A stretch of 29,052 nt of DNA from Nanobdellota archaeon (GCA_038043645.1 JBBTBN010000025.1:1-29052); one strand, 5' to 3'; positions 2,880 to 23,673 are shown, numbered from the stretch's first letter. Numbers and translations are program-made. The notes: generated by a model from the sequence alone, not told the origin.

Positions 2880-3668
2880 TTAGAGAACTCTTTTTTCCTT
2901 CTCCTCTCCCTCCTCTTTAAAACAAATATTTTTATATTCGCACCAGTTGCATAACATTGACTTATTTCTTGGAAATTCTTTTGTGGATTCTACTTTTTTA
3001 ATTAATTCAATGGTTTCTTTTTTTAAATTTTCAAGTTGTGAATTTGTTCTTTTTGATTTCATTATTTTATTATGCGCCAAAAAATGCCATACTAAAAGAA
3101 TTTCTCTTTCATTGCCGTAAATTTCTTTTATAGCAATAGAATATAACGCTAACTGCCTTTCTTGGTCTAAGTGTTCTTGTTTTGGCAGAAGATTTCCTGT
3201 TTTATAGTCGTGAATTTCATATTCTCCTGTTTCTAAATTATAAACAAGTCTGTCAATAAATCCCTGAATTTTGTATTCTCCTTCTTCCAGTTCTATTAGT
3301 ATTCCTTTTTCGCATGCAATTGTTCCGTCTTTAAATGGAGAGTGTTTAGAATAATAATCTACTAAAAATTGTATTCCTTTATTAAAATAATCTCTTGCAG
3401 TAAATTGTTTTTTTACTATCAGAATATTTTCAGAAAATTCTTTTTGCCATTCTTCTGTATATTGGATAATTATATCGTCTATTTTTGGGTCTTTGTTCAT
3501 TTCTTTTACGCTCTTATAAATCCATTCTAAAGTTTTATGCACTGCGCTTCCTAAATGCGTTTCAATTGTTTTTTCTATTTCAGGTTTTAGTTTATCAAGA
3601 TATTTGTATTTGAATTTTTTAGGACATTGTTCAAATGTGGACAAACGCGAATGAGAATAGATTGTCAT
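2880..3668 (-). CDS. PD-(D/E)XK nuclease, RecB/Cas4-like with Fe-S cluster
   Basis: S(H)SRL..FEQCP N-terminal Cys, GFIDRL, HDYKTG, QLALY motifs and C-terminal CxxCxxxxxC. Confidence 0.88.
   Translation of the reverse strand: MTIYSHSRLSTFEQCPKKFKYKYLDKLKPEIEKTIETHLGSAVHKTLEWIYKSVKEMNKDPKIDDIIIQYTEEWQKEFSENILIVKKQFTARDYFNKGIQFLVDYYSKHSPFKDGTIACEKGILIELEEGEYKIQGFIDRLVYNLETGEYEIHDYKTGNLLPKQEHLDQERQLALYSIAIKEIYGNEREILLVWHFLAHNKIMKSKRTNSQLENLKKETIELIKKVESTKEFPRNKSMLCNWCEYKNICFKEEGEEKEKRVL
2914..2984. repeat. 71-bp direct repeat, copy 2 (within the nuclease gene)
   Basis: Identical to 1622-1692. Confidence 0.95.
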
Positions 3669-5487: not shown

Positions 5488-5946
5488 TCATTCTTTTTTA
5501 ACTTCTTCTTTAGGTTTATTTTGTTCTGGGAAAATTTCTTCCAAAGATGTTTTTCCTTCTTTAATAATTTTCAAATTAATCTGGACAATGTCTGGACTTA
5601 TTACTTTTCCTCTGACCGTTTTTCTTAATCTTAAACCTTTTGGAGTATAACTTGAACGCTTTTTTTTGCCTTCGCGTCTTGAACGTTTTTTCATTCCTTT
5701 TTCGTAACTTAATAAAATTCCTTTTAAACCAGTTCCGGGAACAGATTCTAATGCAGTAAATCCTGCTTTGTCGCTTGCGCCAGCTATTTCAAATTCATAA
5801 TCTTCAAGAGCTTTTAATTCAGAGTTTAAATCAAGTTCTTTGCCAGATATTTTTTGATGAAGTTCTTTTCCTTCTAAACTTTTAGTTTCTGTTTCTAACT
5901 TATATGTTTTTCCGTTTTTAGTTCCGATATTTATTTTGAAAGGCAT
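5488..5946 (-). CDS. rps6e: 30S ribosomal protein S6e
   Basis: FKINIG...GKTYK, EIAGASDKAGF, RKTVRG..I...IVQINLKI motifs. Confidence 0.95.
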   Translation of the reverse strand: MPFKINIGTKNGKTYKLETETKSLEGKELHQKISGKELDLNSELKALEDYEFEIAGASDKAGFTALESVPGTGLKGILLSYEKGMKKRSRREGKKKRSSYTPKGLRLRKTVRGKVISPDIVQINLKIIKEGKTSLEEIFPEQNKPKEEVKKE

Positions 5947-8914: not shown

Positions 8915-10732
8915 TCATTTTCCCCAATCTTCCTTTCCTTTCCTTTTTATCTCAGCAATTTCCTGAAGAGCTTTCATTTCACTAGAAGAAAGCAAGTCTT
9001 TATTTTTTTTAAAATTTCTAAAATGTTGTTCTGAAATATCGCTGTAAAGATAATTTTTGTCTTTTAAAACTCTCTCAAAATTTACTCCTGGAATTGAAAC
9101 CGCAATCTCCATTCCTTCTGTCGCCTCTTCTATTGATTTTTTTTCTGATTGAATATTTTTTATTCTTCCGATTTTTTCTCCTTTTTCATCAATTAAATTT
9201 AAACTTTTTTTTATTTTTCCAGCTTCAACTCTTATTCCAAAAATTGCAGGATTTAAATTTCTAAAAACAAACTGATGAATAATTTTTATTTTAAATAAAG
9301 AAGCAAGTTCCATTAAACGCGTTTTTTCAATTTCTCTTGCTTTTTGTTTTCTGAATTCAACAGCGTCTTCAATTAATTTGTAAATAACATCATTTGTCAA
9401 GACTTTTATTTTTTCTCCCGTGAGCAAGATACTAGCTTCTTCGTCAAGAGAAACATTAAATCCTATTATTATCGCGTTAAGTTCATTAATTTCTAAATTT
9501 GCTTTTGCAGAAATTATATCCGTTTTGGTTATGTTTCCAATTCCTGCTTTTAAAATAGAAATGTTGTTTTGTTTTAATAAAAATAATAATGCTTCTAAAC
9601 TTCCAAGAGAATCTGCTTTTGCAATTATTCCTTGTTTTTCAAGCGATGAATTTATAGATTCAGAAATTTGTTTCTTAAATTTTTCTTTTAATTCCTGCAA
9701 ATTATCTTTGTAAATTTCAAAAGGCATTCCTGAAAAAATTTCATCCTTTTCTCCGACAATTAATTGCATTCTTAAGCCAGTTGATGCCTGAACTATTTCT
9801 TTTGGTTTGAATTTTGCGCTTAAAGGTTCAATTTCTTCCAACACTCTAATCTTTGCAATCAGAGGTTTTCCGTCGATATTTGATAACGCAATTTGATCTG
9901 ATTTTTTAAGCTGTCCGTCATAAAGAATTGCTTCAGCATAATTTCCGGATCTTTCTTTTTTAATTTCAAGAACCACTCCTTTTGCATCTTCTCCTAATTT
10001 TAATTTATCCACAAGATATTTCTGGCTTAAACCGCAGAGCATCATTATTAATTCTGGAATTCCCTGTTGTGTTCTTGCAGAGCATGGAACTAATGCAATT
10101 CTTTTTGTAAAATCTGTTATGTTATAATATAAATCTGAATCAAATCCGTATGAATTTAAAGAACCGATTATGGTCATATATCTCTCGTTGAAAGTATTTT
10201 GAATATTCATTGCTTGAGATTCTATATTTTCTTTTAATCCGATTTTCAAATTTACGCTACTCTCGCCCTCACTCGGATTTTCCAAATTTGACTTCGTGAT
10301 TTCATCTCGTGAAGGCGTTCGCCACCCACTAATATTATCTATTTTGTTTAGCGCAATTAAAAAAGGAGTTTTATTGTGTTTTAAAATTTGAATTACTTCT
10401 GCTGTTTGGGGTTTTATTCCTTCATTTATATCTATTACTAAAACTGCTAAGTCAGCCAAGCTTCCTCCGCGTTTTCTTAAATTTGTAAATGCGGCGTGTC
10501 CTGGAGTGTCAATAAATAAAAAACCCGGAATGTCTAATTTAATTCCCGAGCTTTCAATTAAGGGGCAGGTTTTTTTAAGCTGTTCTGCAGGATAACTTGT
10601 GAAAGAAATTTTTTGAGTTATTCCCCCTTTTTCAGTTTCTTGAATGGATGTGTTTCTAAGCACGTCGAGGATTGAAGTTTTTCCGTGGTCTACATGACCG
10701 CAGACTGTTACAATTGGTTGGCGGATTGTCAT
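8915..10732 (-). CDS. infB: Translation initiation factor IF-2 / aIF5B
   Basis: RQPIVTVCGHVDHGKT, GGITQ, DTPGH.AF.NLRKRGG, NKID, DSLGSLEAL; carries a ~22-aa insertion after ISGWR. Confidence 0.97.
   Translation of the reverse strand: MTIRQPIVTVCGHVDHGKTSILDVLRNTSIQETEKGGITQKISFTSYPAEQLKKTCPLIESSGIKLDIPGFLFIDTPGHAAFTNLRKRGGSLADLAVLVIDINEGIKPQTAEVIQILKHNKTPFLIALNKIDNISGWRTPSRDEITKSNLENPSEGESSVNLKIGLKENIESQAMNIQNTFNERYMTIIGSLNSYGFDSDLYYNITDFTKRIALVPCSARTQQGIPELIMMLCGLSQKYLVDKLKLGEDAKGVVLEIKKERSGNYAEAILYDGQLKKSDQIALSNIDGKPLIAKIRVLEEIEPLSAKFKPKEIVQASTGLRMQLIVGEKDEIFSGMPFEIYKDNLQELKEKFKKQISESINSSLEKQGIIAKADSLGSLEALLFLLKQNNISILKAGIGNITKTDIISAKANLEINELNAIIIGFNVSLDEEASILLTGEKIKVLTNDVIYKLIEDAVEFRKQKAREIEKTRLMELASLFKIKIIHQFVFRNLNPAIFGIRVEAGKIKKSLNLIDEKGEKIGRIKNIQSEKKSIEEATEGMEIAVSIPGVNFERVLKDKNYLYSDISEQHFRNFKKNKDLLSSSEMKALQEIAEIKRKGKEDWGK
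10258..10321. repeat. Palindromic dispersed repeat, copy A (in frame inside infB)
   Basis: 50/64 nt identical without gaps to 23304-23367; imperfect hairpin CTTCG-T-GAT-TTC-ATC-T-CG-TG-AAG. Confidence 0.8.
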
Positions 10733-22702: not shown

Positions 22703-23242
22703 TTATATAATATATGCTTTCACAATTTTTACTTCCTCTAAAGGCCTGTCTTCTTCATCTGTTTCAACTTTTGCGATTTTGTCTATAACTTCCATCCCTT
22801 CAATCACTTTTCCAAAAGCAGGATGTTTGTCATCGAGGAAATTGTTATCAACTAAATTTATAAAAAATTGGCTTCCGCCCGTATTTGGACCGGAATTTGC
22901 CATTGAAATTGTTCCTCTGTTGTTTTTATTTCCGCCTGAATGGGTGAACTCATCTTTGATATTATATCCTGGACCACCCATCCCTGTTCCTTGAGGATCT
23001 CCTCCTTGAAGCATAAATCCGTCAATAACTCTGTGAAAAATAACTCCGTCGTAAAAACCGTTCTCAACTAATTTCTTGAAATTTCCAGAAGTTATCGGCA
23101 TATCAGAATAAAGATTAATTACAATGTCTCCATAATTTGTTTCAAGTTTTACCCTTGTTGATTCTGTTTTTTTTACCATGATTATTATTCCTGCTATTAA
23201 AATAATTAAGATTATTATAAATGTTATTATTTTAGGTTTCAT
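22703..23242 (-). CDS. Cyclophilin-type peptidyl-prolyl cis-trans isomerase with N-terminal membrane anchor
   Basis: FHRVIDGFMLQGGD, MANSGPNTGGSQFFI, FGKVIEG; hydrophobic N-terminus. Confidence 0.95.
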   Translation of the reverse strand: MKPKIITFIIILIILIAGIIIMVKKTESTRVKLETNYGDIVINLYSDMPITSGNFKKLVENGFYDGVIFHRVIDGFMLQGGDPQGTGMGGPGYNIKDEFTHSGGNKNNRGTISMANSGPNTGGSQFFINLVDNNFLDDKHPAFGKVIEGMEVIDKIAKVETDEEDRPLEEVKIVKAYII

Positions 23243-23303
23243 GAGATTTATTAAATAATTTTGTGTTTATTGTTCCTACTCGTTCTATTTTATTAATTTT
23301 TAT

Positions 23304-23367
23304 TACTCCCGACCCCGCTCGGATTTCTTTAATTTGCCTTCGGGATTTAATCTCGCGAAGTCGCTCG
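23304..23367. repeat. Palindromic dispersed repeat, copy B (overlaps the 3' end of the HPF-like gene)
   Basis: 50/64 identical to 10258-10321; hairpin CTTCG-G-GAT-TTA-ATC-T-CG-CG-AAG. Confidence 0.8.
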
Positions 23368-23673
23368 TTGATCGCTTACATGAAAAGTATGTTCAATTTC
23401 ATTTTCTATTTTATTGAAAACTTTATGAAAGGTTCTTTTTAAATCCCAGTCAACAGCGTCTGCTTCAAGAATTTTTCCAGAATAATTTACTATTGCATGA
23501 ACGCTGAATTTTATTCTTCCTCCAGGGCTGTGTTCTTTTAAATGAATTTTCACAGACTCAACATTTTTTAATTTGTTTTCAATTTTTTTAGAATATTCTC
23601 CCCAAATTTTTTGAAATTCTTCTTTAGTTTTTTCAGTAAGAATTTCGAAACCGATTGTTTTTAAATCAACCAT
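23347..23673 (-). CDS. HPF/RaiA-like (S30EA) ribosome-associated protein
   Basis: VKIHLKE...KFSVHA.V...G.I.EA.A.DWDL...F.K...EI pattern; assignment from fold pattern only. Confidence 0.55.
   Translation of the reverse strand: MVDLKTIGFEILTEKTKEEFQKIWGEYSKKIENKLKNVESVKIHLKEHSPGGRIKFSVHAIVNYSGKILEADAVDWDLKRTFHKVFNKIENEIEHTFHVSDQRATSRD

Follow-up and report, generated by a model that had tools for sequence, protein, structure and literature searches.

A short hairpin-forming repeat in frame in the aIF5B gene of a DPANN archaeon: a probable member of a repeat family resembling the Rickettsia palindromic elements

Why does the gene of an essential translation factor carry, directly behind one of the motifs of its G domain, a run of codons that is missing from the same gene in close relatives? 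The question is raised by a stretch of 29,052 nucleotides from a Nanobdellota archaeon (GCA_038043645.1, JBBTBN010000025.1:1-29052; this whole stretch is called the window in the following), in which the gene for translation initiation factor 5B (aIF5B) occupies positions 8915..10732 on the minus strand. According to the list of open reading frames (ORFs) and the translation the gene is intact and encodes 605 amino acids. The precomputed Pfam domains are GTP_EFTU, IF-2 and GTP_EFTU_D4, the nearest solved structures are the archaeal aIF5B structures 5yt0 and 1g7r, and the gene is single-copy, as no second full-length match is present in the genome. The host is a Pacearchaeota-type DPANN archaeon from groundwater with a genome of 625 kb in 37 contigs and a G+C content of 28%; this genome is referred to as G000 and its congeners as G001, G002 and G003, the four genomes being 72-93% complete. 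Around the site in question the product reads ...NKIDNISGWR-TPSRDEITKSNLENPSEGESSV-NLK.... An earlier note on this DNA had described about 22 extra amino acids after NKIDNISGWR, which was correct for the position and slightly off for the size, as the insert comprises 21 codons, i.e., 63 nt. It had further proposed that these codons belong to a coding repeat family of the kind known from Rickettsia, and this is supported by further copies, by a defined empty site and by other in-frame insertions. The segment is probably one copy of a non-autonomous, hairpin-forming family of short repeats, similar to the Rickettsia palindromic elements (RPEs), in Pacearchaeota-type DPANN archaea.

The empty site was sought by an alignment of relatives, as the earlier note had suggested, and could be defined as TGG|AGA ACA in two congeners and in every other relative that was compared. 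Among 20 aligned aIF5B genes the extra 21 residues were found in G000 and G003 alone and were lacking in G002 and in the other genera; the aIF5B of the fourth congener, G001, is also without insert, and a clean empty site is present in G001, G002 and 16 other relatives. Empty alleles read TGG AGR ACA or GCA, filled alleles TGG CGA ACG ... AGT AGA ACA GAT. The comparison of both places the net insertion of 63 nt (10259-10321, codons 138-158) exactly between the Trp and the Arg codons of GWR, after the G4 motif NKID, with the terminal AG of the element coinciding with the AG of the target Arg codon. In a gene tree calculated with the insert masked, G000 branches first in the genus and G003 groups with the empty G001 and G002, therefore more than one event is required within the genus. 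The inserts of G000 and G003 differ by CC/GG vs AT/AT at two adjacent stem pairs, which constitutes a double compensatory change in coding sequence. Contigs of at least 99% identity from two separate studies keep the insert, no junction skipping it was found within the species in contigs from four DNA runs, and the empty junction appears in one of the same samples, in a contig that belongs to a related species. As a source of the empty alleles, slippage between the GAAC repeats on both sides was considered and rejected, as it predicts TGG CGA ACA and every empty allele reads TGG AGR ACA or GCA. Elsewhere in the gene, the aIF5B of G001 (L071, G001:C22:8500-10381) is without about 40 residues matching approximately residues 313-354 of the G000 protein, its frame being otherwise open.

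The repeat copy in aIF5B, as delimited by a covariance model, spans 10257..10321 on the minus strand (65 nt including a conserved 3' UAG) and scores 74.7 bits with an E-value of 9e-18. Its 5' arm (10306..10321, minus strand; CGAACGCCTTCACGAG on the gene strand, columns 11-26 of a 20-copy alignment) encodes R-T-P-S-R and pairs with the 3' arm (10260..10275, minus strand; CGAGTGAGGGCGAGAG on the gene strand, alignment columns 63-78, supported by covariation counts), which encodes P-S-E-G-E-S. Both arms enclose a variable 30-nt loop of subfamily 1 (10276..10305, minus strand), defined by fold and alignment. A second copy of subfamily 1 lies at 23303..23367 on the minus strand, is mostly intergenic, reaches 78.5 bits with the covariance model and matches the terminal motifs of the repeat family exactly. 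The ungapped match of 50/64 reported earlier between 10258-10321 and 23304-23367 was reproduced, while the best ungapped matches of 200 shuffled queries in the window had a mean of 32/64 and a maximum of 37/64; in a repeat search the pair extends to 73 nt at 75% identity. Translation likewise confirmed that the second copy can be read in the same frame with two stop codons. The 5' arm of this copy provides a 108-aa ORF (23347..23673, minus strand; from translation and locus comparison) with its last six codons and the stop, i.e., with an element-encoded C-terminal tail (...QRATSRD*), and the G003 orthologue, read from the locus sequence, has a different end and no element. The characterization of the repeat as GC-rich holds relative to the genome (local G+C of approximately 42-43% vs 28%) and does not hold in absolute terms.

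Starting from the second copy, further copies were found on other contigs, which the earlier note had recommended to look for. Read in the + orientation of the window, the copies share two 16-nt ends, CTCCCGACCCCGCTCG and CTCGCGAAGTCGCTCG, 25-55 nt apart, and these terminal motifs occur 49 times in the genome vs 2 times in a shuffled genome. The repeat unit has a length of 53-87 nt, in which a variable loop separates the 5' arm of 16 nt (consensus CGAGCGACUUCGCGAG) from a 16-nt 3' arm (CGAGCGGGGUCGGGAG), usually followed by UAG. Twenty copies align well at both ends and their middles split into subfamilies; (G)UAG stands after the 3' arm in 13 of the 20 and before the 5' arm in none. The covariance model built from this alignment yields 40 matches in the own genome at E<=1 and 35 at E<=0.001, and for the three congeners 34, 78 and 64 matches at E<=0.001, while the other genera among the 27 nearest relatives have 0-4 matches each. 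At least 52 of 149 genera of the archaeal family, represented by one genome per genus, have a match at E<=1e-5, and several of them show bursts of at least 10 copies; as 30 candidates per genome were scored, these counts are lower bounds. No match to Rfam 15 was obtained at the gathering threshold anywhere in the window. Most copies in G000 are intergenic, judged by a simple ORF-based gene set with 85% coding sequence, and no bias in their orientation toward neighbouring genes was observed in this genome. A fixed role as terminator or in 5'-untranslated regions is unsupported, as the copies have no orientation preference. Several copies are arranged in head-to-tail arrays, which probably break the assembly; on contig C32 of G000 (5550-5776) at least four near-identical 57-nt units run head-to-tail into the contig end. 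Two further candidate explanations were dismissed. The aIF5B copy is not the ancestral reservoir of the family, as in four checkable genomes with a single copy this copy lies outside aIF5B, and the single copies in other genera do not represent a conserved syntenic RNA gene, as the neighbouring genes are unrelated.

On the sense strand of aIF5B the ends of the element pair over 9 bp (CGACUUCGC with GCGGGGUCG), and tandem G-A mismatches lie on both sides of this stem; in the minimum-free-energy fold of the aIF5B copy the 9-bp stem is continuous and leads into a 2x3 internal loop. This terminal 9-bp stem is supported by covariation: in the 20 copies from G000 95% of the cells are paired and compensatory changes occur at 7 of 11 pairs, none of 500 shuffles equalled the observed pairing or covariation score, and the pairing falls to 29-47% if the partner is shifted by one to three columns. 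For 48 further distinct copies from other genomes 96.8% pairing and compensatory changes at 10 of 11 pairs were obtained, with an alignment fitted to the covariance model, which somewhat favours the structure. One stem pair is U-G in 19 of the 20 G000 copies and in 43 of the 48 others; on the opposite strand this becomes a C-A mismatch, therefore the stem pairs fully on one strand only. The CTTCG...CGAAG hairpin proposed previously does exist; the loop of the aIF5B copy holds a CGAAG segment that is able to pair with the 5' arm. It is a minor inner pairing and not the main stem; the stem supported by covariation joins the ends of the element.

Further in-frame coding insertions, which were to be counted according to the earlier note, were found in the congeners, and the respective orthologues in G000 are empty. 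The tally in G000 itself, based on approximately 36 copies, comprises one clear internal insertion in a conserved gene (aIF5B), two element-encoded C-terminal tails and some copies at N-termini that are uncertain; the tails are those of the 108-aa ORF and of an ORF of 207 aa on contig C2. In the congeners, 3-kb loci around the model matches revealed five further copies inside long ORFs. In the RsmB/F-type RNA methyltransferase of G002 an insert of 21 residues lies close to the C-terminus and is spanned by the Pfam match, and the orthologue in G000 (76% identical) shows a gap exactly at this insert. A 251-aa protein of G003 carries two units, both of which are absent from the G000 orthologue. 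Among the coding units each of the three sense frames is used (RATSR, SDFAR, ERLRG), and one unit is read in antisense (APDPAR). No common insertion target motif was found among the sites: aIF5B and the methyltransferase were both entered just after TGG, the other sites were not. Downstream of the 108-aa ORF, the subfamily-1 copy is present in G000 and, approximately 6 nt away, a copy from a different subfamily in G002, and G001 and G003 are empty; to judge from the loci compared, this intergenic site was apparently colonised independently. Between the genes flanking this second copy (window 23225-23358), G001:C24, G002:C19 and G003:C86 hold approximately 1.4-1.7 kb that are absent from G000.

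For the protein, the solved aIF5B structures align through residue 139 and resume at residue 168 of the G000 protein (residues 140 and 148 of 1g7r), therefore the insert is located in the loop after the G4 strand. In an AlphaFold2 model of residues 1-245, calculated with 48 homologues, the predicted local distance difference test score (pLDDT) is <50 for residues 142-163 and approximately 90 on the flanks, and the insert is thus predicted to form a polar surface loop that is probably disordered. Every coding copy seen has a length divisible by three and is free of stop codons, with the qualification that matches in protein databases are biased towards intact frames, and aIF5B is single-copy and essential; from this we infer that the insert is translated. 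Its effect on aIF5B is probably near-neutral.

The same position is occupied in other lineages as well. In a large protein collection, searched with the insert region only, many aIF5B proteins were found to have extra residues at the exact site. Some of these inserts belong to the same family and have other loops (TPSREENSEGKNNKSSGGESRT; ATSRETIPKANPQNPNEVGRR), one aIF5B, known at the protein level, has three tandem units with 62 extra residues, and a distant clade has a minimal insert of 45 nt (AISR...SEVAR) directly after TGG, the DNA of which is recognised by the model. The stem is retained in the DNA of four aIF5B alleles from other lineages. In an insert-masked tree of 109 proteins the sister relationship of filled and empty alleles has 96-99% support, and eight state changes are required for the eight rows that had initially been assigned to the family. 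Between the types of aIF5B inserts the arms are 83-91% identical and the loops 58-63%, with 82-94% for the upstream flanking codons of the G domain. As accounts of this patchy site, repeated insertion, precise excision or the exchange of gene patches between co-occurring lineages may be considered. A second, unrelated multi-hairpin repeat (core GGTTCTCGCACCTCCTTGGTGTACACC) is present in other genera in frame one codon after the aIF5B site (L081:1915-, L082:1909-), where its inserts encode MPQNSAI.GTPSG-type peptides; two copies of it are found in G000 (C36:~3110-3230, C13:~11290) and several other genera have at most four matches in a genome. In the distant lineage with the minimal insert, a copy of the repeat family studied here lies just upstream of the aIF2-gamma gene (L110:14680-14752), 4 kb from aIF5B.

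Under the reading preferred here, the repeat family would spread mainly in intergenic DNA, often as head-to-tail arrays, and a copy would occasionally land in coding DNA, where copies with a length divisible by three and no stop codon would persist and be translated if situated in a tolerant surface loop. The movement may proceed through a single-stranded intermediate with an enzyme supplied in trans. By analogy, a hairpin on one strand, conserved end motifs and scar-free sites are what would be expected of single-strand movers such as the repetitive extragenic palindromic (REP) elements with their REP-associated tyrosine transposases (RAYTs) or IS200/IS605; the enzyme could be encoded by the host or by a virus, or in unassembled DNA. 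Several results weigh against this reading. No target-site duplication was found in three filled/empty comparisons (aIF5B, methyltransferase and the second-copy site). The TnpA/RAYT gene that the earlier note expected nearby was not found: in G000-G003 no Y1/RAYT (PF01797) gene was detected at E<=0.1, in a search the control of which was detected in 7 of 14 genomes and in 10 of 14 in the own-genome search, and the matches to the TnpB zinc ribbon in these genomes all stayed below threshold. A parent insertion sequence (IS) with matching ends was not found above the cut-off for Y1_Tnp and the TnpB zinc ribbon, other transposase families not having been searched. As neither Y1/RAYT nor TnpB was found, it is therefore the presence/absence patterns that argue for mobility. 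The intragenic share in G000 is well below that of the main RPE families, in which about half of the copies are intragenic (PMC10969869). Furthermore, at least six state changes at the identical aIF5B site are forced by well-supported branches of the 109-protein tree, therefore simple random insertion does not explain the pattern, and arms that are as conserved as the flanks while the loop diverges could reflect function rather than neutrality. The translation of the insert is suggested by its open frame.

It is possible, albeit doubtful, that the patchiness of the aIF5B site originates from an exchange of gene patches by homologous recombination among co-occurring lineages after one or few insertions. 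Four filled alleles have AGT as the Ser codon 6 nt upstream of the insert (window 10321-10330; L078, L083, L080 vs L091, L092), and close empty ones have TCN, including a tight clade with AGT in the filled P0004 and P0006 and TCN in the empty P0035 and P0038; this difference of at least two bases is linked to the state of the insert and favours patch exchange, and so do the joint occurrence of filled and empty relatives in one groundwater sample and the absence of a deletion scar from the empty alleles. However, the two filled alleles of G003 and of the P0044 lineage carry TCN, the loop types differ strongly, and the unrelated hairpin family one codon on in other genera needs at least one more independent insertion. 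In a further alternative the aIF5B site carries an old hairpin that has been selected for a role in the mRNA or the protein, for example in regulation, in pausing or in the binding of a protein. It would have been passed on vertically, apart from occasional precise loss or recombination between alleles, the genomic copies would be amplified forms of the same element, and the aIF5B copy would not be neutral cargo. This alternative could account for inserts of the same family at TGG|CGA in distant clades, including the model-confirmed 45-nt minimal form, for arms conserved like the flanking codons, for the compensatory double change between G000 and G003, and for a C-G stem variant shared by the aIF5B copies of G000, P0004, P0006 and P0010, where 17 of 20 G000 copies have the consensus A-U. 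It is nevertheless quite unlikely, as 83 of 109 aIF5B genes are without insert in a sample that is biased towards inserts, sister lineages differ in insert state, and the arms are equally conserved in intergenic copies in either orientation to the neighbouring genes; moreover, the arms could stay complementary without having a function, through gene conversion from other copies or through repair in which the palindrome serves as its own template.

A combined variant, in which a strand-specific hairpin of single-stranded DNA or RNA is moved by a novel enzyme other than TnpB or an HUH transposase, the aIF5B codon that follows GW is a specific site, reused in at least six state changes and by two unrelated hairpin families within one codon, and the hairpin is kept by selection as a functional structure and not as neutral cargo, is regarded as rather unlikely. 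Removal or skipping at the RNA level, by which the insert would be absent from the protein, either as a bulge-helix-bulge intron or by ribosomal bypassing like the 'byp' elements of yeast mitochondria, appears very improbable. GC-rich hairpins in an AT-rich genome do resemble mitochondrial GC clusters and byps, and the structure is confined to the aIF5B sense strand. Against this, the fold has a continuous stem with a 2x3 internal loop instead of two 3-nt bulges 4 bp apart, although no dedicated search for bulge-helix-bulge motifs was run, and intergenic copies cannot be introns. All aIF5B inserts, including the 62-aa triple tandem, and also those in other genes, in three frames, have lengths divisible by three and no stop codons, a constraint that is needed only if the insert is translated and therefore weighs against removal from the RNA. 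That moderately GC-rich stretches are similar by chance, or that the insert is an assembly artefact, is hardly conceivable: the short length of the match alone would speak for it, while 50/64 stands against a shuffled maximum of 37, dozens of copies show covariation, and contigs obtained in independent runs and studies contain the insert, as does a sister species.

With the segment read as a copy of a mobile repeat family, the closest parallel is found in the RPEs (Ogata et al., 2000, 2002), which in PMC10969869 and PMC2229807 are described as palindromic repeats located both in intergenic regions and in frame in conserved genes, the ORF of the host gene being kept. Both repeats are multi-copy, hairpin-forming and non-autonomous, are found in intergenic DNA and in frame with the ORF left intact and a peptide loop added, have no known transposase, and are restricted to a lineage of organisms with reduced genomes. 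In contrast to the alphaproteobacterial families RPE-1 to RPE-10 of 105-146 bp, the archaeal repeat has 53-87 nt, is built of two 16-nt arms and an exchangeable loop, often in head-to-tail arrays, relies in its stem on U-G wobbles that allow pairing on one strand only, and has far fewer intragenic copies in G000. The archaeal repeat is an analogue and not a relative of the RPEs, a distinction that is drawn by size and host and not by direct sequence comparison.

REP elements and bacterial interspersed mosaic elements (BIMEs) with RAYTs, the genes of which are typically flanked by REPs, and elements derived from IS200/IS605 are short imperfect palindromes with strand-specific hairpins and without target-site duplication that are mostly extragenic. 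The archaeal repeat shares with the REP/RAYT systems the imperfect, strand-specific palindrome, the lack of a target-site duplication, a short terminal motif (here the 3' UAG), the arrangement in arrays and the mostly extragenic location. It differs by the absence of a Y1 transposase gene from the results for the four congeneric genomes, by a conserved GUAG 3' of the hairpin, where REP has GTAG/GTGG 5' of the palindrome, and by arrays that are direct head-to-tail instead of alternating. Miniature inverted-repeat transposable elements, or MITEs, for which a census found a high density in some DPANN genomes (PMC11602168), are similar in their range of sizes, in the imperfect inverted repeats at their ends, in their non-coding origin, in lying mostly between genes and in their taxon-specificity (PMC10969869, PMC11602168). 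In contrast to MITEs, no target-site duplication was seen at the repeat, and the search for Y1_Tnp and the TnpB zinc ribbon revealed no parent IS that shares its ends; in addition, the covariation of wobble pairs points to a single-stranded form and not to double-stranded terminal repeats bound by a DDE transposase. The repeat does not pass the tests by which REP/RAYT systems and classical MITEs are defined. GC clusters, double-hairpin elements and byps of fungal mitochondria are GC-rich hairpins that spread in an AT-rich, compact genome and enter protein genes. Ribosomes skip byps, which are thus not required to keep the frame, whereas the coding copies described here have lengths divisible by three and are free of stop codons, therefore their translation is the simpler assumption.

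'Selfish' palindromes inserted in frame are known from textbooks as an oddity of Rickettsia, and a literature search yielded no description of them in archaea, DPANN included. The archaeal family is cleanly defined by a covariance model, by filled and empty alleles in sister species and by a copy in a single-copy, essential GTPase; new are the repeatedly occupied aIF5B site and a hairpin kept in coding sequence by compensatory changes. This raises the questions why the same aIF5B codon is reoccupied by at least two hairpin families and why the hairpin is preserved in coding sequence. Such repeats inflate and fragment DPANN assemblies and add spurious 'novel loops' to conserved proteins, which is relevant to annotators and structure predictors.

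Two further repeat-like features were observed at the beginning of the window. Positions 1-52 are GC-rich and contain a perfect 8-bp hairpin (TTTGACGC/GCGTCAAA); this segment was considered as a member of the repeat family and rejected, as its arms are different. The segments 1618-1692 and 2910-2984 form a 75-nt direct repeat with 99% identity.

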